Source of the DNA: Candidatus Omnitrophota bacterium
GTDB lineage: Bacteria; Omnitrophota; Gorgyraeia; Pluralincolimonadales; Pluralincolimonadaceae
Assembly (NCBI GenBank): GCA_028716565.1
Contig: JAQUPL010000002.1
Location: 96,670-160,669 of the forward strand
DNA: 64,000 bases
Reading direction: 5' to 3'
A program made the position numbers and the translations under genes. Each line of letters starts with the position of its first letter. Positions within the stretch are counted from its first letter, which is position 1. This document shows, one piece after another, positions 5,213-30,266 of this stretch. The notes below the pieces were generated by a model, which was not told the origin of the DNA, did no database searches, and saw only the letters and a list, made by a program, of their open reading frames with translations.

Positions 5213-5227
5213 GCTAAAGACCGGAAA

Positions 5228-8876: not shown

Positions 8877-8879
8877 ACC

Positions 8880-11370: not shown

Positions 11371-11455
11371 TTTTTCAAGGAGGCGATTCGGTGAATCATA
11401 AACCAAGATCCGCAAAAAGGGGTTTTGGTTTTTTGGTTTAAGGAGTTGATTATTT

Positions 11456-12169
11456 ATGTATGCTGGCGATGAATTAATAAAAGAATTTGTGCCGAATAAT
11501 GAATGTAAACAAATTTCCTCGACTTTTTTTCTCGATTTATTATTAAAAGATACGAAAATAGAAAAAATATTAGACCTAGGCTGCGGCAAAGGAGATTCTG
11601 TAGATTACTTCAGGAAGAAAGACCCTGAAATACAATGGGTCGGCCTTGACATTCAATCGTCTCCGGAAGTCGGGGCCAGGAAAAGGACAGACGCCGCATT
11701 TGTCACATTTAACGGAAGAGAAATCCCTTTTGCGGACGGATATTTTGATATTATATATTGCAATCAGGTATTAGAGCATGCAGAGAAACCGGAAGAGCTT
11801 ATCAATGAGGCGACAAGAGTATTAAAGAAAGGCGGTTTCTTGGTCGGTTCGACATCCCATCTGGAGCCGTTTCATTCCTTGAGTATGTATAATTTTACCC
11901 CTTACGGTTTCAGCCTCATGGTTAAGGCTCCTCTGAAATTAAAGGAGATAAGGCCGGGCATAGATGTGTTTACCCTCATATTCTCGCGAATATTCAAACG
12001 GGTACCACTTTTGTCTCAGCTGTTATCGAGCTATTTCGAAAATGAATCACCCTTCAATTTCATGATGACCGTAGCGGGGAAAATGACCGGCAGGTCAGAT
12101 CAGTATATTAACCTTGCGAAACTGTTATTTTGCGGTCACTTCAGGTTTTTAATACAAAAAGACGGATAA
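11456..12169 (+). CDS. class I SAM-dependent methyltransferase
   Basis: SAM motif I ILDLGCGKGDS and a post-motif region DIIYCNQVLEHAEKPEEL. Confidence 0.7.
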   Translation: MYAGDELIKEFVPNNECKQISSTFFLDLLLKDTKIEKILDLGCGKGDSVDYFRKKDPEIQWVGLDIQSSPEVGARKRTDAAFVTFNGREIPFADGYFDIIYCNQVLEHAEKPEELINEATRVLKKGGFLVGSTSHLEPFHSLSMYNFTPYGFSLMVKAPLKLKEIRPGIDVFTLIFSRIFKRVPLLSQLLSSYFENESPFNFMMTVAGKMTGRSDQYINLAKLLFCGHFRFLIQKDG

Positions 12170-13450: not shown

Positions 13451-13489
13451 AGTCATGCATATGAAATTCCAAAAAAAATCGCTCGTATT

Positions 13490-14683
13490 ATGAACATCCT
13501 GATCTTGACGGCAGACTACTATGCACAGCTTGGCGGGAAATTTACGCATATCCTTATGTTGAAGAGCGGATTAGAAGAACTCGGGCATTCTGTAGACATA
13601 CTATTCCCTAAGAGAACCCCCCTCAATGCTTTAGTGATCAGCGGAGGCGGAAGGATACTGGATTTTTTCGGAATAGGTATTTACTACAGGCAAAATGCCA
13701 TAAAGGCAATGTTAAGATTTTCTCTCGGGAATTTTTTGTGCAGAAAACGGATAGATATTATTAACGCGGAAGACGTAATAGCGTTTTTTGCGATTAATAG
13801 ATCAAAAATTAAAGTTCCCGTGATCCTGACGATCCACGGCGAACTTGCGCAGGAGATGGAATCCGCCGGTCATATAAAATCAGCCTTCGAAAAAAAACTT
13901 TTCTTGAATATGGAGAAGAGATCGTATGAGCTCGCGGATTATACAGTTACCGTAGACACAAGGCTGAAAAACCATATTCAGGATTTAGCCCCTCTTGCTA
14001 AGTCCAAACTCCAGATAATCCAGAACTTTATTGATGTGGAATCCTTCAGGAATAGAATAGATTTGTTAAATATGGAAGAGATAAAGAAAAAAACAGGAAT
14101 TTCTTCCGACAAAAAGGTGATCCTCGTCCCAAGAAGGCTCGTACTGAAATGCGGGGTAATATATGCAATAAAAGCAGCTGAGCTCATTAGAAATAAATTC
14201 AATAGATGCGACCTGGTGTTTTTGATAGTAGGAGTTGGGCCGGAGAGGAGTAATATCCTTAACTATATTAATGATAATAAGTTACAAGAGCTGGTATCCC
14301 TTATTGATGGTGCTGAATACGACAAAATGCCGGAATTCTATAAAATAGCTGAAGTAGTTTTAATCCCGTCTATTAACGTGAAAGGTTATATAGAAGCCAC
14401 ATCCCTGTCCGCTATAGAAGCTATGGCAGCGAATATTCCGGTGATCGCTTCCGATATAGGCGGCCTTGCGGAGATGATCAGTAACGGAGTTACGGGTATA
14501 CTGGTCCCTGAGAAATCAAGCGAAGATATCGCCAAAAATATCATAAAGATCCTGGATAATGAAGATTTAAGAAACGTTATTACCTCTGCAGCCTTTGATT
14601 ATGTATCAAAAAATCATTCGAACCGGGTTGCCGCGCAGAAATTCGCGCGAATATATACAAACGAGATAAAAAATAATGGATGA
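13490..14683 (+). CDS. glycosyltransferase family 4
   Basis: GT4 C-terminal motif EATSLSAIEAMAANIPVIASDIGGLAEMI...GILVP. Confidence 0.8.
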   Translation: MNILILTADYYAQLGGKFTHILMLKSGLEELGHSVDILFPKRTPLNALVISGGGRILDFFGIGIYYRQNAIKAMLRFSLGNFLCRKRIDIINAEDVIAFFAINRSKIKVPVILTIHGELAQEMESAGHIKSAFEKKLFLNMEKRSYELADYTVTVDTRLKNHIQDLAPLAKSKLQIIQNFIDVESFRNRIDLLNMEEIKKKTGISSDKKVILVPRRLVLKCGVIYAIKAAELIRNKFNRCDLVFLIVGVGPERSNILNYINDNKLQELVSLIDGAEYDKMPEFYKIAEVVLIPSINVKGYIEATSLSAIEAMAANIPVIASDIGGLAEMISNGVTGILVPEKSSEDIAKNIIKILDNEDLRNVITSAAFDYVSKNHSNRVAAQKFARIYTNEIKNNG

Positions 14684-16091
14684 GCTCAAGATCAAGAAAC
14701 CGCAAGAAATTTTGTCAGAAGAAAGGCCGCTGGTAGAGCTTCCGGCGCTATTAAAAATATTATTGGTGCTCGTATTTTTTTTATTGGGCATCAGTCTGTT
14801 AATTTTTCCAAGCTATATCGTGTTGGCGCTATTTTTTGGGGTCGTTACGGCCATAGGCATATTATTTAATCCATTCATAGGGGCAATTTTATTTGTCGCA
14901 GCCGCGTACCTACATCCAATACAGCTTATGCCTGAATTAAAATATTCTAATCTTACGACTGCATTCGGCTTTATAATATTTCTTGTATGGGCTTTTCATA
15001 TTTTGATATATAGAGATTTCAAGGTTCCAAAGAGCAGGCAAATACCATATTTTATCGGCTTCGCGATTATTGCGACTGTCTCCTCCGCATTGCGCTGGGA
15101 AGAGAGTTCATTCTATTACGTAGACTTGCTCAAGGTATTTATATTGTATTTCTTGATCTCGAATTTAACAAAAACAAAAAAGCAAATTTCTATCATAGTA
15201 ATTGTTATGCTGATATTGGGATTTCTGGGAAGCATTTTAGCAGTATATCAGTATACCCATGGGTTAGGGTTGAAGATGTCGGGCGGCATCCTTAGGGTCA
15301 CGGGCTTCTCGGATAATCCCAATGATTTCGGCCTAAGCTTGTTATTGCTTATTTCGTTTAGCGTAGGGCTAGTCATGAAAAGCGGAAAATCGGCGCTTAA
15401 AATTACAGGGGCGTTATTAGTATGCGCGTATTTGTTAGGCATATTGATAAGTTTTTCGAGGGCGGTTTATCTCGGGCTGCCCGTGGTCTTGATCGTAAGT
15501 GTATGGAAATTCATAAACAAGGGAAAAAGATTTCTTACCGTCATAATCACCCTTATGTTATTTACCGTGGTGTTATTATTTTTGCCGCAGCAGTTCTGGA
15601 ATAGGATCAATAGCATAGTTATGACGGGGGCAGATCCGAGCATCTGGTCAAGGTTGGACGGGGATATCGTTGGATTAAAAATGATGGCGGCAAATCCCGT
15701 AATCGGAGTAGGTATAGGGCGTTGGAAACAGGAATATTGGCCCATCGCATACGCATCGCCGTTAATAAGGACAAAGTCATCTACCGTTCCGCACAATCTT
15801 TTTATAGAAGCCGGCGCTGAAACTGGCATCACAGGCTTGATTTTGTTTAGTTTGCTGATATTCCTCGCCCTCAGAGAATCGCAGCAATCAATCCGCATAT
15901 TTGAAAAGTCAAAGAATACTCTCTTGAGCGTATATTCCCAGTCGGCAAGTATAAGCTTGGTCGGTTTTCTCATATCCTCGATGTTTATTTCAGCGCTTCA
16001 TGTCAAATTTGTATGGATTATATTAGGATTTATTATAGCCCTTAGGAATATCGCATCAAAAATAGAATCTGAGGATCAAGGGATAAAATGA
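14676..16091 (+). CDS. O-antigen ligase/polymerase-like membrane protein (Wzy_C family)
   Basis: About 10 TM helices with a large periplasmic loop, typical of Wzy/WaaL-type proteins, and a glycan-cassette context. Confidence 0.6.
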   Translation: MDELKIKKPQEILSEERPLVELPALLKILLVLVFFLLGISLLIFPSYIVLALFFGVVTAIGILFNPFIGAILFVAAAYLHPIQLMPELKYSNLTTAFGFIIFLVWAFHILIYRDFKVPKSRQIPYFIGFAIIATVSSALRWEESSFYYVDLLKVFILYFLISNLTKTKKQISIIVIVMLILGFLGSILAVYQYTHGLGLKMSGGILRVTGFSDNPNDFGLSLLLLISFSVGLVMKSGKSALKITGALLVCAYLLGILISFSRAVYLGLPVVLIVSVWKFINKGKRFLTVIITLMLFTVVLLFLPQQFWNRINSIVMTGADPSIWSRLDGDIVGLKMMAANPVIGVGIGRWKQEYWPIAYASPLIRTKSSTVPHNLFIEAGAETGITGLILFSLLIFLALRESQQSIRIFEKSKNTLLSVYSQSASISLVGFLISSMFISALHVKFVWIILGFIIALRNIASKIESEDQGIK

Positions 16092-17233
16092 TAAAAGTGC
16101 TGCATTTGATGACAGCCTCGGAAAAAAACAGGGGGGTCGGAGGAGCGGAAACGCTGCTTTTATCGATAACGGAAAAGATGAGCAAAGAAGATATCGGATT
16201 TATTATCGCGTATACATCAGGAGGGATGCTAACCGATGATTTCAAAAAGGCGGGAGCTGAAGTCGTCCAGTTTGATACGGCAAGCCAGATAGATCTGCCC
16301 GCCGTCTTTAAGTTGGTGAAATTGATAAAAAGCAGAAATATCGATATCGTCCATTCTCACCAGCTTAGGTATGATTTCCTTGGGTCTATTGCAGCCAGGA
16401 TAAGCAAGACCCCTTTTATTTTTACTAGGCATCAATCTCTAAGTGATTATCCGATTAAAAGATTCAAGAAGGCGATTTTCTTAAATGTGGATAGGTTAAT
16501 TACAGTAAGGTCGGCGGATAAAATAGCAGCCGTTTCTAAATTTATTGCCGCTGACCTAATACGAAATGAATGGGTGCCGGCAGAAAGGATAGAGGTTATA
16601 TACTCCGGATTAGATCTGAAAAAATACAACAAGGAGGTAAGGGTAGGGAATATAAGAAAAGAATTTTCAATAGATCCCAGGGCCCCCCTTATCGGAACGG
16701 TAGGCAGGATAAACATCGAAAAGGCCCACGACCTGTTCCTGAAGGCGGCGGCCGAAGTAATAAAGGCGGCCCCTGATGCGAGATTCATAATAGCGGGAGA
16801 CGGCCCATTAAGGGAAAACCAGGAAAAGCTCTCGGAGGAATTAGGCCTGAAGTCAAAAGTGATATTTACGGGATACAGAAGAGATATTCCAGAGATAATT
16901 GCCGATCTCAACATATTCGCCCTCTCATCTCTTACCGAATCCCTGGGAATCGTAAATTTAGAAGCTATGGCCATGGGAAAACCCGTGGTCTCCTTTGATG
17001 TGGGAGGGGTCTCAGAGTTAGTGGCCGATAAGGAAACGGGCTTGTTGGTCCCTCCCAGGGATGCCGTCGCCTTCGCCGGCGCCATAATAGGCCTAATACA
17101 GGACAAGGGAAAAGCGAAAAATATGGGTTTGGCGGGAAGAAGGCGAGTAGAAGAAAACTTCACGCTGGATGCGACGGTAAAAAAATACCATGAATTATAC
17201 AATTCGATTGCAGAGGGCGGACAAAAGCAATAA
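16088..17233 (+). CDS. glycosyltransferase family 4
   Basis: ESLGIVNLEAMAMGKPVVSFDVGGVSELVADKETGLLVPP. Confidence 0.8.
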   Translation: MIKVLHLMTASEKNRGVGGAETLLLSITEKMSKEDIGFIIAYTSGGMLTDDFKKAGAEVVQFDTASQIDLPAVFKLVKLIKSRNIDIVHSHQLRYDFLGSIAARISKTPFIFTRHQSLSDYPIKRFKKAIFLNVDRLITVRSADKIAAVSKFIAADLIRNEWVPAERIEVIYSGLDLKKYNKEVRVGNIRKEFSIDPRAPLIGTVGRINIEKAHDLFLKAAAEVIKAAPDARFIIAGDGPLRENQEKLSEELGLKSKVIFTGYRRDIPEIIADLNIFALSSLTESLGIVNLEAMAMGKPVVSFDVGGVSELVADKETGLLVPPRDAVAFAGAIIGLIQDKGKAKNMGLAGRRRVEENFTLDATVKKYHELYNSIAEGGQKQ

Positions 17234-17234
17234 T

Positions 17235-18455
17235 ATGCCGAAAAAATTGAATATTCTAATGGCGACAGAGGCTTTTTATCCGGATGGGATCGGCGGGGCG
17301 CATACTTACGTCTATAATTTATCTAAATATTTGATACGGCAAGGTCACCGCGTTTATGTCATAACCATAAAGAACGGTGAAAGCGCATTAGCAGATGAGG
17401 ACATCGAGGGAATCAAAGTTTTAAGATATAAGACTCCGATTAGCGGGCTCTTCCTGTTCGTTAGGCGTCCGATATGTAGCATTATAAATTCCCGACGACT
17501 GTTTTGTTCTATAGCAAAAGAAGTAAAATTTGACGTCATTAATTTTCATTTAGCATTACCAGCTTTTGGTTTAAGCACTTGCTCATTTAGCAAGGGGATT
17601 CCGAAGATTTACACTTTTCATTCATCAATGGCCGGAGATGTAGCGGTCCAGGTAAAAAAGAAGAAATATTTTCCGTCATTCCTGAACAGCCTTGTTTTCG
17701 CGGTGATCAGATCTATTGAAAAGGCGGACTTAAAATGGTGCGATAAAGTAATAGTTTTAAGCGGTTTCAGCAAGCGGTGCCTGACGGAGATCTATAAACA
17801 GGATCCCGGCAAGATAACGATTATCCCAGGAGGGGTAGATGTAAACAAGTTCATTCCCGTTATCGACAAAATGCTGCTGAGAAAAGAGCTCTCCATTCCC
17901 GCGGACAAGACGGTCCTTTTGACTGCAAGGCGCTTGGTTGCCCGGATGGGGCTCGAGAACCTGATCTATGCCATGAGGCATGTGATTGAAAAAGAAAAGA
18001 ATGTGATCTTACTGATTTTAGGCGAAGGGTTTTTAAGGGAAAAGCTGGAACTGATCATAACGCAGAATGGCCTGAAAGATTACGTTATTCTTTTGGGACC
18101 GGTCGATACCGGTAAAATGAGCTCTTACTATCAGGCTTGTGATGCTTTTGTTTTGCCCACCGAGCAGGATGAATGGTTCGGGCTGGTTACTATAGAAGCG
18201 CTATCCTGCGGTATTCCGGTTCTCGGAACACCCGTGGGCGGGACTTCGGAAATATTGGGAAGCATCGATAAGGCGTTGTTATTTTCCGGGACAGGTGCTC
18301 GGGATATGGCCAAGGGTATATTGGATTTCCTCGGGAATAAGGATCGCTTTACTGGGAAGAGCCGCGAGTTCAGAAAATTCGCGGAAGATAATTACTCATG
18401 GGAGATTGTATCCCGGAAAACCGAGGATATTTATTTAAGCATCCTCGGAAAATAA
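17235..18455 (+). CDS. glycosyltransferase family 4
   Basis: EQDEWFGLVTIEALSCGIPVLGTPVGGTSEIL. Start set at ATG 17235 (MPKKLNIL), after the stop of the upstream gene, rather than 17190. Confidence 0.75.
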   Translation: MPKKLNILMATEAFYPDGIGGAHTYVYNLSKYLIRQGHRVYVITIKNGESALADEDIEGIKVLRYKTPISGLFLFVRRPICSIINSRRLFCSIAKEVKFDVINFHLALPAFGLSTCSFSKGIPKIYTFHSSMAGDVAVQVKKKKYFPSFLNSLVFAVIRSIEKADLKWCDKVIVLSGFSKRCLTEIYKQDPGKITIIPGGVDVNKFIPVIDKMLLRKELSIPADKTVLLTARRLVARMGLENLIYAMRHVIEKEKNVILLILGEGFLREKLELIITQNGLKDYVILLGPVDTGKMSSYYQACDAFVLPTEQDEWFGLVTIEALSCGIPVLGTPVGGTSEILGSIDKALLFSGTGARDMAKGILDFLGNKDRFTGKSREFRKFAEDNYSWEIVSRKTEDIYLSILGK

Positions 18456-18468
18456 ATAGAGAGGTTAT

Positions 18469-20106
18469 ATGAGATTTTTTCTGGAAGTAATTATTTTGAT
18501 AAGCATGATCCCAACATCTTCGGCTTCCGGTCCGGTTTCAGTAACGCCCACTCCCCAAGAAATAGAGATGAAAGGAGGGGCAGCAGTCTTATCGAACGAT
18601 TGGAGCATTGTATTGGACCAGAAAGATTCCAAAAATGCACTTACTGCTAGATACTTGGCGGATAAAATTAATGACCGATTCGGCCTTATTCTTAATCTGG
18701 AAGATGTGGCCCATCCAAATAAAAAAAACCATATTGTGTTAAGTAAACTTTCCGGACAAGAGCATAATAACATAGGAGAAGAAGGTTATGTGTTGATAGC
18801 CTCAGATGGGAATATTTCCATATCGGCAAATACCCAGAAAGGTATATTCTATGGCATGCAAACGCTGTGCCAGTTGATTAAAAAAGAAGCAAACAATATA
18901 ACGGTGCCGTTGCTCAAAATCGTTGATTATCCCAAGATAAAGATCAGGGCAGTGCATTTTAGCGGAATAAAGCCCGATAAAATAAAGGAAGAAATAGAAA
19001 AAATCGCCCAGCTTAAATACAATACGGCGATAATAGAATCGCAAGCTTATTTTAGCCTTGGCCAAAGCGAAAACAGGGAATTAATGGAAGAAATATTCCG
19101 TTACGCCCGCGAACTCTATATTGAACCTATTCCCGAGGTGCTTAGCTTTAGTTCAGCGCAGGGAATATTGGTAGGCGATCCTTATTCAGTCGAAGGAATA
19201 CGTAACGAAAATAAAAAGCTTAAATTCATAAATGATATTGCCCAACCAGAAGAATCAACTGTTGGGCCTCTGGTCAATGTGATAAGAGACGGAGAAGACG
19301 AAATAATAGTCAGAAGCGCGGATGGGAAAAAAGTATTTTCCGAACACAAGGATTATAAAGTCATTGATGGGCAGATATCCTTTCCCTTCAGTTCGAGTGC
19401 CGTTCCCACGCAGATCATGAGGATCCAAGATGGCGAGATAGAAAATGGAGAAGAGGTCCTGGTTTCCTATACTTATTTTGAAAATAAACCCTCGTTTAAT
19501 TTTCCGGATTGCGTGGCCACCTATTGTCCTTCCACGGAAAGGACATATAATGTAATGACTGAAACGATAGGGAACGTGCTTAATATATTAAGGCCGTCAT
19601 ATATCAGCATCGGCCATGATGAAATAAGGGGAATGAATAGGGACAATCGTTGCAGAAAAAGAAATCTAAGCAACGCGGAATTGTTGGCGGACGATGTGAT
19701 TAAACTTTTTAATATATGTAAAAGCGTTAATCCGGATGTAAATGTATTAATGTGGAATGACATGCTTAATCCTTATTATAACGGCGGCAATGCTGATTTT
19801 GAAGTACAGTATGGAGGCCTGCCCGGAGAGACATATCCGGCCATAGATTGGATTCCTAAAGACGTTATCCTAATGACGGCGGCATACGATCCAAATAAAA
19901 GTTTCTGCCTGAAAAGTTGCGATTATTTTGACTCGAAGCAATTTAACTACCTTGTTGCCGGTTGGAACAATAAGCAGAACATTGCCGAGTGGTCTGAAAT
20001 AGCCAAACAAAGAAGCAATTGCCTCGGTATCATAGAGACCACCTGGTATGATTGGGAAGGTAATTTTGAGAATATAAAATATGCAGCCGAAGTTTCCTGG
20101 CACTAA
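18469..20106 (+). CDS. secreted glycoside hydrolase, GH20-like (beta-N-acetylhexosaminidase/dispersin-like fold), tentative
   Basis: Signal peptide. A TPTPQEIEMKGG N-domain pattern, DYPKIKIRAVHF...KYNTAIIE, and SIGHDEI resembling the GH20 H-x-G-G-D-E catalytic motif. Assigned from memory of family motifs only. Confidence 0.4.
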   Translation: MRFFLEVIILISMIPTSSASGPVSVTPTPQEIEMKGGAAVLSNDWSIVLDQKDSKNALTARYLADKINDRFGLILNLEDVAHPNKKNHIVLSKLSGQEHNNIGEEGYVLIASDGNISISANTQKGIFYGMQTLCQLIKKEANNITVPLLKIVDYPKIKIRAVHFSGIKPDKIKEEIEKIAQLKYNTAIIESQAYFSLGQSENRELMEEIFRYARELYIEPIPEVLSFSSAQGILVGDPYSVEGIRNENKKLKFINDIAQPEESTVGPLVNVIRDGEDEIIVRSADGKKVFSEHKDYKVIDGQISFPFSSSAVPTQIMRIQDGEIENGEEVLVSYTYFENKPSFNFPDCVATYCPSTERTYNVMTETIGNVLNILRPSYISIGHDEIRGMNRDNRCRKRNLSNAELLADDVIKLFNICKSVNPDVNVLMWNDMLNPYYNGGNADFEVQYGGLPGETYPAIDWIPKDVILMTAAYDPNKSFCLKSCDYFDSKQFNYLVAGWNNKQNIAEWSEIAKQRSNCLGIIETTWYDWEGNFENIKYAAEVSWH

Positions 20107-20121
20107 TTTGAGGGAGGCAAG

Positions 20122-21258
20122 ATGAAGCCGCAAAAAATTAAGGTCATCTTGATATTCGGTACGCGCCCCGAGGTGATCAAGTCCGCTCCGGTAGTGAAGG
20201 AGTTGCGGAAATATCCAAAATCGATCGAGTCCAAAGTGATAATCAGCGCACAACACAGGAAAATGGCAGACCAATTCCTAGGTCTTTTCAAGATAAAGGC
20301 CGATTTCGATTTGAATATAATGCGACCTAATCAGACGCTCTTTGACGTTACTGGGAGGTGCCTGAAAAAACTGGAAGATATTTTAAGGAAAGAGAAGCCT
20401 CATCTCGTCCTGGTCCAGGGGGATACCACTACTTCTTTTACAGCCAGCCTGGCAGCTTATTACCTGAAGATAAAAGTCGGTCACGTAGAAGCAGGCCTTC
20501 GGACTGACGATAAATACAGGCCGTTTCCGGAAGAAATGAACAGAAGGCTTGTCAGCGCCATAGGGGATTTCCATTTTTCACCAACGACGAAAGCCAGGCA
20601 AAATCTTATAAAGGAGGGGATAAACCCTTCAAGCATCTACGTCACCGGTAATACCGTTATAGATTCGCTATTGGAAGTAGCGAGGAGAAAGTTTAGATTC
20701 GATGACCCGTTTTTGCAGAAGATCTGTTCTGGTAAAAGGAAGATAATATTAGTTACCGCTCACAGGAGAGAAAGTTTCGGAAAGCCCCTGGAATCCATAT
20801 GCGAGGCCCTTAAAGAGATAGCCCGACTCTATGATGTTGAAATTATATACCCTGTCCATCTCAACCCCAATGTCCAGGTGCCTGTAAGGAAAATTCTTGC
20901 AGGTATAAAAAATATCCATCTTATTGAGCCGTTGGAGTACGAGCCGTTTATTCACCTGATGAAAAGAAGTTATATAGTATTAACAGACTCAGGCGGAGTT
21001 CAAGAGGAGGCCCCTTCATTAGGGAAACCTGTCCTAGTCATGAGGGAAGTGACTGAACGTCCGGAGGGCATTAAGGCGGGGTGCGCAAAACTTGTCGGAA
21101 TGGATAAGAAAAGGATAATTTCCGCCGTTAAGAAGCTCCTGAATTCCAAGCCGGCATACAACAAGATGGCCAAATCGGTAAATCCGTATGGCGACGGGAA
21201 AGCAGCGAAAAGGATAGTGAGCGTTATTTTGCACTCAAGAAAAAGGCTTGTCAGGTAG
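20122..21258 (+). CDS. wecB: UDP-N-acetylglucosamine 2-epimerase (non-hydrolysing)
   Basis: IFGTRPEVIK, HVEAGLRTDDKYRPFPEEMNRRL and the overall WecB/MnaA architecture. Confidence 0.9.
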   Translation: MKPQKIKVILIFGTRPEVIKSAPVVKELRKYPKSIESKVIISAQHRKMADQFLGLFKIKADFDLNIMRPNQTLFDVTGRCLKKLEDILRKEKPHLVLVQGDTTTSFTASLAAYYLKIKVGHVEAGLRTDDKYRPFPEEMNRRLVSAIGDFHFSPTTKARQNLIKEGINPSSIYVTGNTVIDSLLEVARRKFRFDDPFLQKICSGKRKIILVTAHRRESFGKPLESICEALKEIARLYDVEIIYPVHLNPNVQVPVRKILAGIKNIHLIEPLEYEPFIHLMKRSYIVLTDSGGVQEEAPSLGKPVLVMREVTERPEGIKAGCAKLVGMDKKRIISAVKKLLNSKPAYNKMAKSVNPYGDGKAAKRIVSVILHSRKRLVR

Positions 21259-21261
21259 ACT

Positions 21262-22401
21262 ATGGCTGCATGGCTATTTTGGTTTTCGATAGGTCTAGTG
21301 GCGACTAGTTATTTCGGCTATCCTTTTATTATGGCCGTGTTAGCAGCTGTTTTGAAAAAGCCCTATGAAATAAAAGATATAGAACCATACGTTAGCTTGA
21401 TCATTCCTGCCCATAATGAGGAAAAAGTTATAGCCGATAAGCTTAATAATGCCCTGTCTCTGGACTATCCCCGGGATAAGTTCGAAATCTTGTTAATTCT
21501 GGATGGTTGTATTGATAAGACTAAAGCAATCGCCGCGGGTTACAAAGATTCTCGGCTGAAATTAATCGAGCAAAACCCCAGAAAAGGCAAAATGGCCGCC
21601 CTGAATTTAGCAGTTCCGCAAGCCAAGGGTGATATAGTCGTATTTACCGACGCGAATTCCCTCTACGAGAAAGATGCCATAAGAAAACTAGTAAGGAATT
21701 TTGCCGATAAAAGAATAGGTTGCGTGTGCGGAGAATTAAAATATCGCAACGAATCTCTGGTAGGAGAGGGCGAAGACCTGTATTGGAAATATGAAAAATT
21801 CATAAAGACAAACGAAAGTCGCTTATATTCTTTATTAGTAGTGAACGGTTCCATATATGCCATAAGGAAAGACCTGTTCGAACCGGTCGAAGAGACCCTG
21901 GCAGATGACTTTGTGGTACCCATGGTCATAGCCAAAAAGGGATACGGCCTTGTATATGAACCTGAAGCAGTTACCCTGGAAAAGACCGCAGCGAGCACAA
22001 AAGAAGGAATAAGCCAGAAAGCCAGGATCATCGCGCAGGGGCTTAAAGCCGGTTTTGCTGTCGGCCGGATCATTGTTTTGTCAGGGCCTCTGAGATTATT
22101 TCAATTCCTGTTCCATAAGTTTATCCGCTGGTTTGTTCCCGTTTTTTTAATTATAATGTTTCTATCCAATATATTTTTACTGAACGAGCCGTTCTATAAA
22201 GTTATATTTTTGTGCCAAGGTCTATTTTACATATTCGCGGCGATCGGCCATTTACTGGAAAAAAATAACGTAAAGATAGGCATCTTCAAAATCCCGCTTT
22301 ATTTTTGTGTGGTCAACTTGGCCTCGGCCATCGGTATAATCAAGTTTTTGACAGGCGGGATAAAGGCAACCTGGGAAAAAGCGGAAACAACAAGAGGATA
22401 A
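21262..22401 (+). CDS. glycosyltransferase family 2 (membrane-anchored)
   Basis: SLIIPAHNEE, ILDGCIDKT and a DxD-like TDANS motif, plus C-terminal TM helices. Confidence 0.75.
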   Translation: MAAWLFWFSIGLVATSYFGYPFIMAVLAAVLKKPYEIKDIEPYVSLIIPAHNEEKVIADKLNNALSLDYPRDKFEILLILDGCIDKTKAIAAGYKDSRLKLIEQNPRKGKMAALNLAVPQAKGDIVVFTDANSLYEKDAIRKLVRNFADKRIGCVCGELKYRNESLVGEGEDLYWKYEKFIKTNESRLYSLLVVNGSIYAIRKDLFEPVEETLADDFVVPMVIAKKGYGLVYEPEAVTLEKTAASTKEGISQKARIIAQGLKAGFAVGRIIVLSGPLRLFQFLFHKFIRWFVPVFLIIMFLSNIFLLNEPFYKVIFLCQGLFYIFAAIGHLLEKNNVKIGIFKIPLYFCVVNLASAIGIIKFLTGGIKATWEKAETTRG

Positions 22402-22404
22402 ACC

Positions 22405-23442
22405 ATGATCAGGTATTTCTTAACCTCATTTTTCATCTCCGCGGCGGCGGCGATCGTCTTTACCCCTATAGTCAGAAGGTTGGCGCTGGCGTTAGGGGTT
22501 GTCGACAAACCCGGCGGCCGGAAGGTGCACCGGCAGAACATGCCGACTTTGGGCGGGATAGCGATAGCCGCGGCGTTTTTCGCGGGCATAACCGTCGCTT
22601 TTAGGGCAGTGCCGGGGGCGATGGGCACATTTTCACTGAAATTTGCGGGATTATGCGTAGGCAGCGCGATCATCCTGCTGCTGGGGGTGATAGATGATAT
22701 CGTACCGCTCAAAGCGAAATTGAAACTCGTCTTCCAGGTCATAGCCGCTTCTATCCTGATCGGATGCGGATTTACGGTTGAAGAAGTGACCATACCGTTT
22801 TACGGAAAATTCTCCCTCGGGATCTCCGGGGCCGTTTTTTCGATGCTCTGGATAGTCGGCATCGTCAATGCCATAAACCTTCTCGACGGACTTGACGGGC
22901 TCGCTGCCGGCGTCTCGGCGATAGCCTCGTTTTTTATCTTCCTGTCAGCCGTCGAACAGCACGATTATGTAGTGGCTTTCCTGGCTTTCGCCCTTACCGG
23001 CGCTTGCGCGGGATTCCTGCCGTTCAATTTTTATCCGGCGAGAATATTTATGGGGAATCCGGGAAGTATGTTCCTTGGATTTATACTGGCGGCGATATCC
23101 ATAGTCAGTTTCCAAAAAAGTAGTACCGTGATAACTCTATTTATCCCGGTAATAGCCCTGGGCGTCCCTATAATCGATACCTTGCTTGCCATCGTCCGCC
23201 GCCTGGCAAAAAAGAAACACATCTTTCAGGCCGACAAGGAGCACATCCACCATAAACTCCTTTTCCGTGAGGAATCCCAGAGGAGGGTGGTGCTCTCTCT
23301 TTATTTCCTGTCGGTCTGTTTCGGGATGATCGCCCTGAGCTTCAGGGGCATAAAAGGCCTTTATGCTATTATCGCTCTGGGCGTCGTGATCTTAGTGACT
23401 TATAAGTGGATGAAAGATTCCGGCTTCCTCGATTTTAGGTAA
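22405..23442 (+). CDS. MraY/WecA-family polyprenyl-phosphate N-acetylhexosamine-1-phosphate transferase
   Basis: IVNAINLLDGLDGLAAG and the multi-TM architecture, consistent with an initiating glycosyl-1-P transferase. Confidence 0.8.
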   Translation: MIRYFLTSFFISAAAAIVFTPIVRRLALALGVVDKPGGRKVHRQNMPTLGGIAIAAAFFAGITVAFRAVPGAMGTFSLKFAGLCVGSAIILLLGVIDDIVPLKAKLKLVFQVIAASILIGCGFTVEEVTIPFYGKFSLGISGAVFSMLWIVGIVNAINLLDGLDGLAAGVSAIASFFIFLSAVEQHDYVVAFLAFALTGACAGFLPFNFYPARIFMGNPGSMFLGFILAAISIVSFQKSSTVITLFIPVIALGVPIIDTLLAIVRRLAKKKHIFQADKEHIHHKLLFREESQRRVVLSLYFLSVCFGMIALSFRGIKGLYAIIALGVVILVTYKWMKDSGFLDFR

Positions 23443-23490
23443 TTTATTATCCTTGACAAAATTGCTTAATTGTAGTAAATTTTAAGGACA

Positions 23491-24321
23491 ATGGAATGTT
23501 CTTTAGCGATAAAAGGAATTGCCAGCACAAGGATCCTGCAGGAGCTTCAGGGCGCGTTCCTGAAGTTTACGGGCATGGAATTCTCTTTCGTGGACCTGAA
23601 GGGGAAGCCCGTGATAATCTCGCAGTATGCCGGGCATTCCTGTAAAGCCCTCCTCTCGTCGAAGAAAAAAGATTCCGCGTTCCCGGACGTCGTAACTAAA
23701 TCGTGCAATTCCCTCTCCGGCTCGAAGAAACCCGTTATTTCCGAATATAATAAAACACCGCTGGCGTTCGTCCCTATAATAATAGAGGGGAACGCGATAG
23801 GCGCGGTCTTGATGTGCCCCGGCGGCAGCCAGGCCGCCAATGCCGGGATATCGAAGGAGCAATTCAAAAGCGCGGCCGAGCTTTTATTCATTTTTGTAAA
23901 TTATGTGTTTAAGCATGAATTCGACTTCCTGGTCGTTTCCGATACAGACAAGCAGTATTCGCGCAACCAGGAAGCGGTCCTTAAAGCTGTAGCGTTCATA
24001 AAGAAAAACTACCACGACAAGGACATATCCCTCCAGAAAGTAGCCGCGGAAGTCGCCCTGAGCCATTACTATTTCAGCCATATTTTCAAGGATGAGCTTA
24101 AGATCACTTTTATAGAATATTTGACGAAGGTCAGGATGGAAGCTTCGGCCAAGCTTTTGAAAAACCGCAACCTGAATGTTAACCAGATCGCGTATGCCGT
24201 TGGATACCAGGACCCGAATTATTTCAGTAAAGTTTTTAAAAGATACATGAAAACCTCCCCGATCGAATACAGGAACAATATGCTGAGAAAGGGGACAGAA
24301 AAACAAATAATTACGGCATAA
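23491..24321 (+). CDS. AraC-family transcriptional regulator with N-terminal PocR-like sensor domain
   Basis: C-terminal AraC HTH (LQKVAAEVALSHYYFSHIFK...IAYAVGYQDPNYFSKVFKRY). The N-terminal region resembles PocR. A promoter-like TTGACA sits upstream. Confidence 0.75.
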   Translation: MECSLAIKGIASTRILQELQGAFLKFTGMEFSFVDLKGKPVIISQYAGHSCKALLSSKKKDSAFPDVVTKSCNSLSGSKKPVISEYNKTPLAFVPIIIEGNAIGAVLMCPGGSQAANAGISKEQFKSAAELLFIFVNYVFKHEFDFLVVSDTDKQYSRNQEAVLKAVAFIKKNYHDKDISLQKVAAEVALSHYYFSHIFKDELKITFIEYLTKVRMEASAKLLKNRNLNVNQIAYAVGYQDPNYFSKVFKRYMKTSPIEYRNNMLRKGTEKQIITA

Positions 24322-24336: not shown

Positions 24337-24364
24337 TTGACACTGTTTACTTTTGTGTTATACT
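24337..24364 (+). promoter_or_regulatory. sigma70-like promoter upstream of the PilZ gene
   Basis: TTGACA (24337-24342), a 16-nt spacer, then TATACT (24359-24364). Confidence 0.5.
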
Positions 24365-26588: not shown

Positions 26589-26589
26589 G

Positions 26590-27429
26590 ATGAAGAATAT
26601 TTCCAGGTATGGTCCGATAATAGTCGCGGCCCTTTTAATGCTGATATACCTGCCTACTTTTGTATGGATGAAAGCCCGTTTTGATGAAGTGGAATCGTAT
26701 TATTCCCACGGATACCTCGTCCCCCTGGTTTTTGCTTACCTTATCTGGATGAAGAGGGATGAACTGAGAAAATGCGCTATTAAACCCGCCGGCCTGGCAT
26801 TGCTTATTTTCGTTCCCGCGCTCCTGGTCCATCTCCTGGCCTATTTCTTCGAGATCAATTTCGTATCGGGATTTACCCTTATTGCGGCGATATTCGGCCT
26901 CGCATTGTATCTGTACGGGCCGGATATCGCTAAAAAGACGGCTTTCCCTGTCATATTTTTAATATTTATGGTCCCCCTGCCCCAGGTCATGATAATAAAT
27001 ATAAGTTTTAAAATGAAGATGATGGCCGCGCAGGTCGCGACAGGCATCGTTAACCTCATTGGCATACACGCCGTAAGGGACGGGAGCATAGTTTACCTTA
27101 AGCCGGACACTTCGCTGACAATAGGAAGCCCGTGCAGCGGGCTGAGTTCCCTGATCGCGCTGACGGCGTTAGGCGCGCTATACGCTTACCTGGCAAAGAT
27201 GTCCGGGTCGAGGAAAATTATCCTTTTCCTCCTGTCGATACCGATAGCCTTGGCGGCTAACATATTCAGGATAGTCATGCTTCTTCTTGTGGGTTTCGCG
27301 TATGACGCGAAAGTGGCGACCGGTCCGTTTGTGCACGGTTTCCTGGCGTTCTTACTTTATATCTTCGCTATCGCAGGGTTATTAATAGTAGGGAGAATGT
27401 TGTCGTGGGCAAAAATGAACGCAACCTAA
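26590..27429 (+). CDS. exosortase (XrtA/EpsH family)
   Basis: 8-TM protein with an N-terminal W...YSHGYLVP...W..R motif, the catalytic-Cys motif GSPCSGLSSL and NIFRIV (Asn/Arg). Followed by EpsI and PEP-CTERM genes. Confidence 0.8.
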   Translation: MKNISRYGPIIVAALLMLIYLPTFVWMKARFDEVESYYSHGYLVPLVFAYLIWMKRDELRKCAIKPAGLALLIFVPALLVHLLAYFFEINFVSGFTLIAAIFGLALYLYGPDIAKKTAFPVIFLIFMVPLPQVMIINISFKMKMMAAQVATGIVNLIGIHAVRDGSIVYLKPDTSLTIGSPCSGLSSLIALTALGALYAYLAKMSGSRKIILFLLSIPIALAANIFRIVMLLLVGFAYDAKVATGPFVHGFLAFLLYIFAIAGLLIVGRMLSWAKMNAT

Positions 27430-28055
27430 TAATCGCGATCGTCATCTTAGCCGCTTGCGGGGCGTGTGTCTTCGGGATCTCTACCGTCAAAAGGGCCCCG
27501 TCCCGGGCCGTAAAATTAATGGAGTTCCCCCTTAATCTCGGCGAATGGACAGGGAAGGATATCAAGTTCGAAGATAAGGAATACGAAAAACAGGTTTACG
27601 AGATACTCGGCACAGACAAGGTCCTGATCAGGGCATACTCGGACAGGAAGAATGAGTCGGCCGCGGTACAGGTGGTCTATTCCGACCAGAAGAGGCAGAG
27701 TTTCCATCCGCCCGAATATTGCTACCTGGGAAGCGGCGCAAACGAGCTTTTAGAGACAGGCAAGGCGCAGGTCGCGCTTGACGGCGGCAAGGTTTTGCAG
27801 GTAAACAGGACAGTATACCAGACGAAAAGGGGAAAGGTGCTGATGCTCGATTGGTATACCGCCGGAGATATGATGACGGGTAATTATTATAAACAACAGA
27901 TGTATTTCATGATCAACCAGCTTAAGCGCGCGAAAAGCGGGGGTTCGGCCGTAAGGGTCTGGACGCCGATAATAGGAAATGATGTTGACGCCGCGTTCGA
28001 CAGGTGCCGGCGCTTGATACGCGAGATGGTAAAACTCCTTCCCGATTACCTATAA
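27405..28055 (+). CDS. exosortase-associated EpsI family protein
   Basis: N-terminal TM helix and an HPPEYCYLGSG motif characteristic of EpsI. Overlaps the exosortase 3' end. Confidence 0.8.
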   Translation: MGKNERNLIIAIVILAACGACVFGISTVKRAPSRAVKLMEFPLNLGEWTGKDIKFEDKEYEKQVYEILGTDKVLIRAYSDRKNESAAVQVVYSDQKRQSFHPPEYCYLGSGANELLETGKAQVALDGGKVLQVNRTVYQTKRGKVLMLDWYTAGDMMTGNYYKQQMYFMINQLKRAKSGGSAVRVWTPIIGNDVDAAFDRCRRLIREMVKLLPDYL

Positions 28056-28085
28056 ATAATACTAAAAAATAGCAATTTTTTTCTC

Positions 28086-28114
28086 TTGACATACTTACCC
28101 TCGTGGGGTATAGT
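28086..28114 (+). promoter_or_regulatory. consensus sigma70 promoter for the PEP-CTERM gene
   Basis: TTGACA (28086-28091), a 17-nt spacer, then TATAGT (28109-28114). Followed by a leader of about 137 nt and the RBS AAAGGAGGAGGTGG. Confidence 0.65.
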
Positions 28115-28257
28115 AGCAATGTCATAAACACGTGTCGAAGCGTACACCGCAGCACATGCTTCCGAAAATAAATCGCAACCTTTTGAATAGAGCATTAGTT
28201 TAATCCGTGGATAAACACGTTTCGACGAAAGGTAACTAAAAAAGGAGGAGGTGGAAG

Positions 28258-28935
28258 ATGGGAAAGTTTTTGTTAGTGGTATTGGTAGCGTTAATGTTAG
28301 CGTTACCAACGATGGCCCAAGCTGCTCCTGCGATATCTTCTTGGCCGGGCTACGTTTATAAAGATGGCGGCTATGCCGGAAACCTGTATTCGCCATCGGG
28401 ATGGATGGGTCAGCACTCAGCCATGAGTTTAGCCGTTACCACGAGTTCTTCTGAAACGGCTGTCAGCGGCACATCAACCAAGATAAGTTTTACATCCGGT
28501 ACCTCGGCTTCAGAGTGGACCGGTGTCTATTGGCTGTCGCCTGACGGCAACTGGGGTAGTGACGCTAACGGCGGTTGGAATTTGACCGGCGCGGGCAATA
28601 TGACGTTCTGGGCAAAAGGCGCTGTCGGCGGAGAGAAGATGGAATTCAAGATAGGCGGTATCGCCGGGGATTACGGGGATACGCTGGCCGGTATGACGCA
28701 GACGGTTACTCTCGCTCCTGTCTGGACGCAGTATTCTTTCGATTTAACCGGCAAGGATCTAAGCCGTGTGGTCGGCGGTTTTGAATTTGCCGCCAACGAT
28801 ACCGATAACCCGACCGGCGCTACATTCTACGTCGATGACGTTCAATACAACGCCGTTCCTGAACCTGCGAGCCTGTTACTGCTCGGCAGCGGTTTAGTAG
28901 GGTTAGTTGGTTTGACAAAAAAGAGAAAAGCGTAA
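28258..28935 (+). CDS. PEP-CTERM sorting-domain protein (secreted, Gly/Ser/Thr-rich)
   Basis: Signal peptide. C-terminal VPEPASLLLLGSGLVGLVGLTKKRKA is a complete PEP-CTERM signal: the PEP motif, a TM helix and a basic tail. Confidence 0.85.
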   Translation: MGKFLLVVLVALMLALPTMAQAAPAISSWPGYVYKDGGYAGNLYSPSGWMGQHSAMSLAVTTSSSETAVSGTSTKISFTSGTSASEWTGVYWLSPDGNWGSDANGGWNLTGAGNMTFWAKGAVGGEKMEFKIGGIAGDYGDTLAGMTQTVTLAPVWTQYSFDLTGKDLSRVVGGFEFAANDTDNPTGATFYVDDVQYNAVPEPASLLLLGSGLVGLVGLTKKRKA

Positions 28936-29026
28936 GTAAGTAGGTTATAGTTAGTGTAGGGGGACGAAGAGGGCTTCCATATTCCGCTCCAGGTAGATGG
29001 GAGCCCTCTTTATTACTTCATACTTT

Positions 29027-30097
29027 ATGAAAATAAACTATTTAAGTCTTACAGCAGCCTTATTTATTTTACTCTATGCGCCGGCCGTTTCCGCGGAAAC
29101 GGAGATCGGCGCTTTCGTGGGTAATGAAGACCACATGATGCCGTCCGCTGCCGAGGTCCAAAATTTCGAGAACCTCACCGGAAGGCACGTCAATAGCGTC
29201 CTGGTCTATTGGGCGTGGAATGACGGCGATTTCCCGGCGCAGAGCCTCAATAGCGGGGTCAGGTTCCATGACGGGTACGATACCAAGACATCGATAAATT
29301 TTACATGGGAACCATGGTCAAGGCTGGGCGGAAATGACAGCACCTTCCCCATGGACAGGATAATAAATGGCGATTTTGATCCTTATATCACTAAATTCGC
29401 GATAGACAGCCGCGTTTGGGCCGATCCGATAAGGATGCGTTTCGCTCACGAGATGATACAGGATAACGATCCGGCTACGCCGGGTTGGTATCCGTGGCAG
29501 GACAAGCCCGCAGAGTACGTCCAGGCATTCAACCATGTACGCGATATATTCAAGAAAGAGGGGGCAAATAACGTCGAGTTTGTCTGGTGCCCGAATAACT
29601 ACCCGTTCGATCCCACGGTGTTAGCGCAATATTATCCCGGGAAGGAAAACGTCGATTGGCTTGGGATAGACGGCTATAATTCCGGGGAAGACGGCGATCC
29701 CGAATGGCCCTATTGGCAGAATATCGATGATATATTTTATGTGATGTACAACGCCTTTAAGAATAACCCGGAGCTGTTCGGCGACAAGCCGATAATGCTC
29801 GGCGAATTCGCCTCTGTCGAGGGAAATCAATTAGACGGCGGGAGCAAGGCGCAATGGATAGCCCAGGCTTTTAGCAGGCTCAAGCAGTCCTATCCGGATA
29901 TAGACGCTTTTTATTGGTTCGACAAGCTGAAAGAGGCGGATTGGCGGATAGATTCTTCCCCCGAAAGCCTGGCGGCTTTTCAGTTAGCGATGCAAGACCC
30001 GTATTATACCTCCCACGCCGTTCCCGAGCCCGCAAGCCTGCTTTTGCTTGGTACGGGCCTTTTAGCGTTATTTTCTCCCTTATTTCCCCTTGACTAA
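29027..30097 (+). CDS. PEP-CTERM-anchored glycoside hydrolase, GH26-like (tentative family)
   Basis: Signal peptide MKINYLSLTAALFILLYAPAVSA. RFAHEM and WCPN / IMLGEF resemble the GH26 catalytic acid and nucleophile regions. Ends in VPEPASLLLLGTGLLALFSPLFPLD. Start set at ATG 29027, after the terminator-like hairpin. Confidence 0.7.
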   Translation: MKINYLSLTAALFILLYAPAVSAETEIGAFVGNEDHMMPSAAEVQNFENLTGRHVNSVLVYWAWNDGDFPAQSLNSGVRFHDGYDTKTSINFTWEPWSRLGGNDSTFPMDRIINGDFDPYITKFAIDSRVWADPIRMRFAHEMIQDNDPATPGWYPWQDKPAEYVQAFNHVRDIFKKEGANNVEFVWCPNNYPFDPTVLAQYYPGKENVDWLGIDGYNSGEDGDPEWPYWQNIDDIFYVMYNAFKNNPELFGDKPIMLGEFASVEGNQLDGGSKAQWIAQAFSRLKQSYPDIDAFYWFDKLKEADWRIDSSPESLAAFQLAMQDPYYTSHAVPEPASLLLLGTGLLALFSPLFPLD

Positions 30098-30118
30098 AAA
30101 CCCTCTAATCGGCTATAA
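30090..30118 (+). promoter_or_regulatory. sigma70 promoter for tRNA-Val/thrS
   Basis: TTGACT (30090-30095), a 17-nt spacer, then TATAAT (30113-30118). A hairpin GGCTTACCC/GGGTAAGCC at 30135-30167 lies in the leader. Confidence 0.55.
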
Positions 30119-30189
30119 TCTAGCTTCACACGTGGGCTTACCCATTAGTATCTACTAGAGGGTAAGCCATGGGTGGATTATGTTTAAGT

Positions 30190-30266
30190 GGGCTTATAGC
30201 TCAGTTGGTTAGAGCGCTTCCTTGACATGGAAGAGGTCAGAGGTTCGAGTCCTCTTAGGCCCACCA
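30190..30266 (+). tRNA. tRNA-Val (GAC)
   Basis: Acceptor stem GGGCTTA/TAGGCCC, D-arm GCTCAGTTGGTTAGAGC, anticodon loop CUUGACAU, T-arm GGTTCGAGTCC and an encoded CCA. Confidence 0.9.

Follow-up and report, generated by a model that had tools for sequence, protein, structure and literature searches.

The stretch of DNA analysed here, called the window, is 64 kb long and comes from a Candidatus Omnitrophota metagenome-assembled genome (MAG). Its region 26590-30097 carries the genes of an exosortase, of the associated protein EpsI and of two secreted proteins with C-terminal PEP-CTERM sorting signals, cargo 1 and cargo 2, with all genes on the + strand. The exosortase and EpsI genes close a five-gene operon (24397-28055), in which they follow the genes of a PilZ-like protein, a 290-aa membrane protein and a tetratricopeptide repeat (TPR) lipoprotein, all contiguous or overlapping. 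Upstream lies a Wzx/Wzy-type exopolysaccharide (EPS) biosynthesis locus, and a tRNA-Val gene marks the other end (Table 1). Since the promoter assigned to the operon is intergenic and lies 5' of five tightly packed or overlapping genes, that call is supported. Proteins 100% identical to the exosortase and both cargos are named at NCBI as "MAG: exosortase", "PEP-CTERM sorting domain-containing protein" and "glycosyl hydrolase" (Candidatus Omnitrophica/Omnitrophota bacterium). The locus is an ordinary exosortase/PEP-CTERM system, already correctly named by the annotation pipeline PGAP, in which the tail of cargo 2 has no basic cluster. To judge by the DNA of its relatives, this tail is a lineage-specific, 3'-truncated PEP-CTERM signal at a gene-insertion junction and not a new signal class.

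Related loci were used for comparison. L001 represents the population of the window in another assembly (GCA_028714115.1; 99.9% identical to the window over 20 kb), while L007 and L008 come from a sister population in other samples, with DNA about 96% identical to the window and, in L007, an exosortase 95% identical. The exosortase of L089 is 86% identical to that of the window, and those of L090 and L091 are 88% identical. A scan of GTDB species genomes gave 80 loci, mostly from Omnitrophota, and 85 related exosortase loci, again mostly of this phylum, were searched with purpose-built hidden Markov models.

Table 1. Features of the exosortase locus and its flanks; positions refer to the 64-kb window.
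Feature	Position	Strand	Remarks
Wzx/Wzy-type EPS biosynthesis locus	5207..24321	+	from NCBIfam and Pfam scans
Sigma-70-like promoter	24337..24364	+	TTGACA-16-TATACT, 11/12 matches; consensus match only; intergenic, ahead of the exosortase operon
PilZ-like protein, 155 aa	24397..24864	+	first operon gene; RxxxR and N-x-(S/N/C)-x-G-G motifs
Multi-pass membrane protein, 290 aa	24865..25737	+	no family; conserved exosortase partner in Omnitrophota
TPR lipoprotein, 282 aa	25740..26588	+	lipobox LNGC; YbgF/BamD-like, below all cutoffs; not PrsT
Exosortase, 279 aa	26590..27429	+	H40 (YSHG), C182 (PCSG), N224-x-x-R227, H249
EpsI, 216 aa	27405..28055	+	N-terminal transmembrane segment and periplasmic domain; overlaps the exosortase gene by 25 nt
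Sigma-70-like cargo promoter	28086..28114	+	TTGACA-17-TATAGT, 11/12 matches; followed by a ~140-nt 5' untranslated region and a strong AGGAGG ribosome-binding site
Cargo 1, 225 aa	28258..28935	+	Sec signal peptide, CBM11/CBM30-like β-sandwich (predicted), canonical PEP-CTERM; ends AVPEPASLLLLGSGLVGLVGLTKKRKA
Terminator-like hairpin	28966..29011	+	after cargo 1; 15-bp stem, then U-rich run; dG -35.8 kcal/mol, z -3.9
Cargo 2, 366 aa	28997..30097	+	predicted Lic26A-type GH26 retaining glycosidase, truncated PEP-CTERM; ends AVPEPASLLLLGTGLLALFSPLFPLD
Last cargo 2 codons	30071..30097	+	F-S-P-L-F-P-L-D-stop; homologous to non-coding promoter-proximal DNA in relatives without GH26
tRNA-Val promoter	30090..30119	+	TTGACT-18-TATAAT, 11/12 matches; conserved in L007, L089 and L090
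tRNA-Val(GAC)	30190..30266	+	end of the locus; then thrS-infC-rpmI-rplT-pheST

Exosortase and EpsI

The exosortase exceeded the cutoffs of TIGR02602 (148.8, cutoff 105.55), TIGR04178 (59.8, cutoff 23) and PF09721 (190.2, cutoff 25.7). C182-S-G184, N224-I-F-R227 and H40 were invariant in 35 homologues of 40-95% identity, and H249 was conserved at 90% or above. The motifs C-x-G, N-x-x-R and H-x-x-x-G have been described as invariant in exosortases (Haft 2006, PMC1569441); the third reads H-G-F-L-A in this subclade, with Ala at +4, and H-D-F-S-G in the wider clade. An AlphaFold2 model (pLDDT 85) showed about eight long helices with a short β-hairpin ahead of the helix that bears the Cys, in agreement with the hydropathy profile. 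Comparison of the model with the PDB by Foldseek returned nothing below an E-value of 0.88.

EpsI likewise passed TIGR02914 (94.6, cutoff 42.8) and PF11984 (101.7, cutoff 26.1), and it aligned best to the C-terminal domain of XrtD. Its HPPExC..G.G motif, here HPPEYCYLGSG at residues ~101-111, is invariant, with the Cys and the first Gly found in 100% of 82 homologues, which hints at a catalytic or redox role.

A sequence-only reading of this DNA had recognised both proteins by their motifs (CSG and YSHG in the exosortase, HPPEYCYLGSG in EpsI), the membrane protein and TPR lipoprotein ahead of them, two PEP-CTERM substrates and the position at the end of an EPS locus. All of this was borne out: the exosortase, EpsI and PEP-CTERM models, which it had named beforehand as a check, scored above their curated cutoffs, VPEP C-termini were present in orthologues of both cargo proteins, and 5207-24321 is a genuine EPS cluster by NCBIfam and Pfam. 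Its term "XrtA-like" holds as a resemblance and fails as a membership. XrtA (TIGR03109) was the best subtype model for the exosortase, at 167.7 against a cutoff of 208, 40 bits short, and the other subtype cutoffs were missed as well (XrtW, 150.3/425; XrtD, 149.8/400; XrtV, 134.8/313; XrtB, 113.2/275). Among nearby markers associated with XrtA, TIGR03007 was narrowly passed and four others stayed below their cutoffs (TIGR03018, 183.2/230.65; TIGR03088, 183/409; TIGR04063, 100.9/442; TIGR03097, 93.8/188.1). By these profile scores, the exosortase is an unclassified subtype, nearest to XrtA.

Cargo proteins

Both cargos have Sec-type signal peptides and a common 12-residue sorting core, AVPEPASLLLLG, encoded with eight synonymous codon differences. 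Identity of the core despite these differences argues for selection on a common recognition sequence, and recent gene conversion between the two tails was therefore rejected. A six-frame regular-expression scan of the window found no further PEP-CTERM tails in plausible genes.

Cargo 1 has a signal peptide ending in PTMAQA, with the mature protein starting at AP. Its tail (VPEP...GLVGLTKKRKA) matched TIGR02595 over all model positions 1-24 (23.4, cutoff 16), and the basic end TKKRKA is as canonical as had been claimed. The structure model (pLDDT 72) has the β-sandwich fold of carbohydrate-binding modules (CBM), a likeness at the level of fold only. The best structural match was CtCBM11 (PDB 1v0a) at 15% identity, with CBM30, CBM8 and CBM4 nearly equal. 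No Pfam CBM model matched at E ≤ 0.1 and a profile search gave no PDB match; paralogues in other loci had weak precomputed matches to CBM_11, CBM30 or CBM_4_9 only. The model suggests that cargo 1 is like a CBM11/CBM30 glycan-binding module. A riboswitch or other known RNA in the 5' untranslated region was considered and dropped, as Rfam, even at E ≤ 1, matched nothing but tRNAs, and folding gave an unremarkable z-score of 0.16. L089 has kept the hairpin after the gene, and there the tRNA-Val promoter stands directly 3' of it. Homologues of cargo 1 (P0251-P0367) include an Omnitrophota family of about 380 aa with a signal peptide and two tandem CBM-like domains, without PEP-CTERM or Pfam annotation. 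This family is very abundant, with hundreds of clusters at 40-45% identity.

Cargo 2 matched the glycoside hydrolase family 26 (GH26) model PF02156 at 24.6 (cutoff 20.2). A family profile built from 56 homologues matched CtLic26A of Clostridium thermocellum CelH (2bv9) over the whole domain with an E-value of 4.4e-72. Residues E109 and E222 of Lic26A, which we take to be the catalytic acid/base and nucleophile, align to E152 and E270 of cargo 2 (366-aa numbering), invariant in the 56 sequences. The earlier label "GH26-like" was thus correct as to family and understated, since by homology cargo 2 is a clear Lic26A-type GH26. ATG 28997 sits in the 3' arm of the terminator-like hairpin, so ATG 29027 is the likelier start codon; translation from it yields the protein of 356 aa called by NCBI. 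Seven genes were compared between the window and L007 and all were under purifying selection, with ratios of nonsynonymous to synonymous substitution rates (dN/dS) of 0.04-0.29. The value of 0.23 for the GH26 gene, together with the intact catalytic Glu residues, disfavours a pseudogene.

Two groups of GH26 homologues end differently. Many of those without PEP-CTERM (P0040-P0092) finish in a short motif like (V/I)YLP(V/I)(V/I)LK(xx), such as VYLPVVLKAP, IIYLPVVLKAR or ISIYLPIILKQP, which may represent another kind of C-terminal signal for sorting or anchoring. The subgroup P0022-P0039 (314 aa) has neither signal peptide nor tail.

Tail of cargo 2 and its origin

The tail of cargo 2 consists of VPEP and about 20 hydrophobic residues, contains no Lys or Arg and ends in ...PLFPLD. 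It scored 16.9 against TIGR02595 (cutoff 16), with only model positions 1-18 of 24 covered. In the sister population (L007, L008), it reads VPEPASLLLLGMGLLALFSPLFLLD before the stop and is still hydrophobic despite two amino-acid changes. Among the best 120 GH26 homologues, 28 had genuine PEP-CTERM tails, 27 of which carry 2-8 Lys/Arg, against 0 in the window lineage; this was the comparison of tails with and without a basic cluster that the sequence-only reading had called for. Near related exosortases, 116 tails were detected by regular expression. About 109 had at least two Lys/Arg, none had exactly one, and the seven without any comprised three of this GH26 lineage and four short antisense open reading frames (ORFs) that are probably not genes.

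The neighbourhood of the tRNA-Val gene in close relatives accounts for this ending. In L090 and L091, EpsI is directly followed by ...CATTTGCCCTTGACTAAAAACCCCTTAATCGGCTATAAT..., tRNA-Val and thrS, and no cargo genes are present. In L089, cargo 1 and the terminator hairpin are followed by TTTTCTTGTCTTATTTATCCTTGACTAGAAACCCCCTAATCAGCTATAAT, and no GH26 gene is present. The end of the window gene (TTT TCT CCC TTA TTT CCC CTT GAC TAA) aligns base for base with this non-coding DNA, which begins just 5' of the tRNA-Val promoter and extends into it, corresponding to TTTTCTTGTCTTATTTATCCTTGACTAG in L089 and CATTTGCCCTTGACTAA in L090, and the first base of its stop codon is the last base of the -35 hexamer of the tRNA-Val promoter. 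Since the DNA of the terminal codons is non-coding in close relatives without GH26, the tail would be a truncation that has lost the remainder of the helix together with the basic cluster and the native stop. An insertion of the GH26 gene fits, because an AT-rich segment of ~18 nt occurs on both of its sides. The lack of Lys/Arg, which the sequence-only reading had described as an atypical PEP-CTERM tail, is therefore real and present in two populations, but the tail is a 3' truncation and not a variant class of signal.

Other origins were considered and rejected. A frameshift or read-through was not supported, as no Lys/Arg cluster precedes a stop in any reading frame past the tail, and read-through itself gives D-stop-KPSNRL. 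A nonsense mutation was attractive, given that the homologue P0002 ends in SKKPRA, and was dropped when the same DNA proved to be non-coding promoter sequence in the relatives without GH26. An assembly error was ruled out by the same tail in L001, L007, L008 and a Logan assembly.

The same comparison qualifies the linkage that had been noted between exosortase, substrates and EPS genes. They do adjoin in the window, but the cargo linkage is labile, with no cargo at this site in a relative whose exosortase is 88% identical.

Further changes were seen close by. A 55-nt insertion (30134-30188, +), absent from L007 and L090, separates the tRNA-Val gene from its promoter. Its first nucleotides copy the 5' end of the tRNA (GGGCTTA), and it folds into a strong hairpin (dG -28.1 kcal/mol, z -3.65). 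In L089 another, different insert occupies this place (~6420-6482); it likewise starts with GGGGCTTACCC and has ATATTAGGGGC repeats on its flanks.

Accessory genes of the operon

The PilZ-like protein scored 21.6 bits against PF07238, just below the cutoff of 22.5, and its RRKYKR and NLNEGG motifs were conserved in 15 homologues. A Cys-rich insertion of ~33 aa with four conserved Cys (WPRSWDCESCSNCLGWVHNSTC) separates the halves of the PilZ barrel and is not found in the more distant homologues L005, L032, L033, L040 and L062. On its motifs, the protein is a probable receptor of cyclic di-GMP (c-di-GMP).

No Pfam or NCBIfam model matched the 290-aa membrane protein. Only P23, Y75, P76 and P251 were conserved at 90% or above in its 49 homologues, none of them a typical catalytic residue, and its dN/dS was 0.10 (window against L007). 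In the 85 exosortase loci, EpsI was found 82 times, the TPR gene 56 times and the gene of the 290-aa protein 50 times, always paired with the TPR gene. Two gene orders occurred: membrane protein, TPR, exosortase and EpsI, as in L002, L005, L007, L008, L089 and L090, or exosortase, EpsI, cargo (not always present), membrane protein and TPR. By gene content, the PilZ-like protein, the membrane protein, the TPR lipoprotein, the exosortase and EpsI thus make up a cassette conserved across Omnitrophota.

EPS locus and other features of the window

The EPS locus starts with a REC-GAF-GGDEF diguanylate cyclase, a secretin, a chain-length determinant, a Tyr autokinase, a methyltransferase, Wzx, a family 4 glycosyltransferase (GT4) and a Wzy/O-antigen-ligase-like protein. 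It continues with two further GT4 enzymes, a GH20-like protein, WecB, a GT2, a WecA-like transferase and an AraC/PocR regulator. The chain-length determinant was narrowly above the XrtA-system model TIGR03007 (285.6, cutoff 278.85), and the Tyr autokinase, of the BY-kinase type, scored 158.6 against TIGR01007 (cutoff 108.05). WecB reached 508.7 bits with TIGR00236, and the GT2 is PgaC/NodC-like.

The secretin (7245-8876, +) has STN, Secretin_N and Secretin domains (PF00263, 155 bits) and scored 277.9 bits as GspD and 263 bits as PilQ, both below cutoff. It stands directly 5' of the chain-length determinant and the Tyr kinase, where a Wza-type exporter would be expected, and may be an outer-membrane conduit for EPS, PEP-CTERM cargo or both. 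In the GH20-like protein (18469-20106, +), a GH20b domain scored 80 bits and the catalytic-domain match was weak. Its neighbours WecB, the PgaC/NodC-like GT2 and the WecA-like transferase suggest a polymer containing N-acetylhexosamine (HexNAc), with its own processing hexosaminidase.

Further from the exosortase, coaBC is present as two overlapping ORFs (2659-3201 and 3123-3884, +), which cover positions 2-178 and 187-390 of TIGR00521 and represent a true division into CoaC and CoaB or else a frameshift. Two tandem type IV pilin- or pseudopilin-like genes with a prepilin N-terminal methylation domain (3805-4278 and 4361-4819, +) lie just 5' of tRNA-Cys, tRNA-Leu and the EPS locus. At the other end, a low-GC island (~55500-64000, +; 33-37% GC against 50-55% in the flanks) contains an HTH_3/M78 (ImmA/IrrE-like) regulator, six ORFs without a Pfam family and a tyrosine integrase (62788-63864), and is probably an integrated mobile element.

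Proposed function

We consider it very probable that this region handles protein sorting for an Omnitrophota EPS locus and that the tail of cargo 2 was truncated at the tRNA-Val promoter junction. The five-gene operon would supply the sorting machinery, and a separate promoter would drive the two cargo genes. Following the exosortase/archaeosortase/sortase paradigm (PMC1569441, PMC11980579), the cargo would be exported by Sec and stay anchored to the inner membrane through its C-terminal helix, its PEP motif lying on the periplasmic side. The exosortase, presumably a cysteine transpeptidase that spans the membrane several times and carries C182, R227 and H249, would then cleave it Cys-dependently at or near PEP and pass it onward, to be displayed on the cell surface or within the EPS matrix. 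Cargo 1 and cargo 2, the latter a predicted Lic26A-type GH26 endo-β-glycanase, would make up a pair kept at the cell, one binding and the other cutting a polysaccharide, either the cell's own EPS or a foreign β-glycan. The cargo 2 ORF would run into DNA of the tRNA-Val promoter region and halt at the TAA that overlaps the -35 box. More speculatively, EpsI, the 290-aa membrane protein and the TPR lipoprotein may act with the exosortase, and c-di-GMP from the GGDEF protein of the locus, sensed by the PilZ-like protein, may gate the system. The secretin might serve as the outer-membrane route, by analogy with MYXO-CTERM cargo, reported to depend on the type II secretion system (PMC11980579).

Several points weigh against this explanation. 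All the proteins here are known from their genes alone, and PEP cleavage, the acceptor molecule and the outer-membrane route are unsettled for exosortases in general. Given the last of these, "complete", as the sequence-only reading called the system, is best taken as a presumption. The exosortase lies below every subtype-specific cutoff, XrtA included, and its subclade has H-G-F-L-A in place of the published HxxxG motif. PrsK, PrsR and PrsT were not seen among the NCBIfam and Pfam matches of the 32 window proteins scanned, a set that leaves out the ORFs at ~34-51 kb. The model of cargo 1 is of moderate confidence and has no Pfam CBM match to go with it. Expression of the GH26 gene is uncertain, as it stands behind a terminator-like hairpin and neither a separate promoter nor a separate ribosome-binding site is obvious for it. 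Finally, insertion of GH26 is not formally distinguishable from deletion in the relatives, although the terminal codons lie in promoter-homologous DNA either way.

Alternative explanations

For the truncated tail, continued sorting by the exosortase and independence from it were rated about equal, each a serious possibility that falls somewhat short of an even chance. If the exosortase needs only PEP and a hydrophobic helix, the basic cluster would be dispensable and the GH26 enzyme would be sorted normally. The PEP core identical to that of its canonical neighbour, the hydrophobic stretch of about 20 residues that is left, the TIGR02595 score just above cutoff, the dN/dS of the gene and a tail kept hydrophobic in two populations are all consistent with this. 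On the other hand, every one of the 27 orthologue tails and ~109 exosortase-neighbour tails has at least two Lys/Arg, which argues that the cluster is functionally required, the cargo 2 tail ends in Asp, and a three-part architecture is found in every described C-terminal sorting system (PMC1569441; PMC11980579). If the tail is no longer sorted, the enzyme would be tethered to the inner membrane, or be soluble in the periplasm or released, and would trim nascent EPS independently of the exosortase. Many EPS loci encode a periplasmic glycosidase. The basic cluster was lost at an insertion junction rather than through selection for a new signal, its absence is unique among all the tails examined, and the intact catalytic residues under purifying selection point to an enzyme kept for some function. 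Perfect conservation of the PEP motif and its flanks in both populations would be unexpected for a signal that is not recognised, although the divergence time is short, and the location of the GH26 enzyme is a prediction. An extended form of continued sorting, in which the membrane protein, the TPR lipoprotein and the PilZ-like protein are dedicated subunits of a c-di-GMP-gated system, a new exosortase subtype common across Omnitrophota, and the truncated GH26 is still sorted, seems unlikely to us. Were the truncated GH26 still sorted, the basic cluster of PEP-CTERM would be dispensable for exosortase recognition.

The remaining alternatives concern what the system is for and which type it belongs to. 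The cargo pair may serve in foraging or in host or prey interaction on foreign polysaccharide, with the EPS linkage reflecting only where the exosortase gene lies, a reading that we hold to be possible though rather doubtful. The closest solved relatives of the cargos are CelH Lic26A and its CBM11, modules of a cellulosomal enzyme that degrades plant glucan, and the EPS locus looks HexNAc-based (WecA-like, WecB, GH20-like, PgaC/NodC-like GT2) rather than like one for β-1,3-1,4-glucan. The cargo genes also come and go at the site in close relatives, where the EPS and exosortase genes are retained, and GH42, glycoamylase and LacI genes occur near cargo genes in other Omnitrophota loci. Against this, a similarity of ~30-40% is insufficient to read substrate specificity, members of GH26 act on several different polysaccharides, and the co-location with exosortase-EpsI 3' of EPS genes is recurrent. 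That the exosortase is a bona fide XrtA in a standard XrtA system is improbable. In its favour, no subtype model scores higher than XrtA, EpsI has a gene to itself as in XrtA systems, TIGR03007 recognises the chain-length determinant, and the Tyr kinase and the GT4 enzymes score best with XrtA-associated models. However, the score is 40 bits under the cutoff with XrtW and XrtD nearly as high, EpsI is nearest to the XrtD C-terminal domain, and the four associated markers are far under their cutoffs. Moreover, the accessory genes (membrane protein, small TPR and PilZ-like) are not the XrtA set, and NCBI names the protein only "exosortase" or "exosortase/archaeosortase family protein".

Comparison with known systems

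The XrtA (EpsH)/EpsI/PEP-CTERM system of Proteobacteria (Haft 2006, PMC1569441) shares with the window the separate, adjacent EpsI, the C-x-G and N-x-x-R motifs, an EPS locus whose chain-length determinant and Tyr kinase are of the XrtA-associated type, and cargo built of signal peptide, PEP motif, transmembrane segment and basic cluster. The window system differs in the phylum of its host, Omnitrophota, and in the exosortase score below the XrtA cutoff. No sigma-54 motif was seen in it, nor PrsK, PrsR or PrsT among the 32 proteins scanned, and the cargo promoter is sigma-70-like. Its accessory genes encode the 290-aa membrane protein, the small TPR lipoprotein and the PilZ-like protein, and a secretin takes the place of a recognisable Wza-type exporter.

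CelH (Lic26A-Cel5E-CBM11; 2bv9, 1v0a) contains the same two module types that stand side by side here: cargo 2 is homologous to its Lic26A GH26 domain, with both catalytic Glu conserved, and cargo 1 has CtCBM11 as best structural match, a fold-level likeness only at 15% identity. In the window, however, the modules are on two polypeptides, each with PEP-CTERM, whereas CelH is one cellulosomal multidomain enzyme with a dockerin. Small secreted PEP-CTERM proteins tied to EPS or aggregate formation are also known, namely the flocculation-associated PepA (NF033554) and the product of an Aquincola PEP-CTERM gene (PMC9850573). Cargo 1 matched NF033554 weakly at 32 bits, far under the cutoff of 80, and its domain family is specific to Omnitrophota.

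Three-part C-terminal signals are used by LPXTG/sortase, PGF-CTERM/ArtA, GlyGly-CTERM/rhombosortase and MYXO-CTERM/myxosortase (PMC11980579). Cargo 1 fits this pattern exactly, with motif, transmembrane helix, cytoplasmic basic cluster and a dedicated membrane protease, while cargo 2 would be without the third element through 3' truncation.

Significance

Full-text searches of the library used, and the genome surveys of the phylum that were consulted, showed no published work on exosortases or PEP-CTERM in Omnitrophota. What the system adds is modest: its exosortase belongs to an unclassified subtype, an uncharacterised pair of accessory genes recurs with it, and one cargo signal is truncated by nature. 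Exosortase biology has been derived almost wholly from genomics, and how cleavage proceeds chemically, which molecule acts as acceptor, what EpsI does and whether the basic cluster is needed have yet to be put on an experimental footing. The locus offers a matched pair of cargos under one exosortase, with an identical recognition core, one with a basic anchor and one naturally without it. The compact accessory set of membrane protein, TPR lipoprotein and PilZ-like protein, which co-occurs with exosortase-EpsI across an uncultured phylum, provides candidate components of the system. In addition, the cargos have recognisable predicted functions, glycan binding and glycan cleavage, unlike the usual low-complexity PEP-CTERM proteins.

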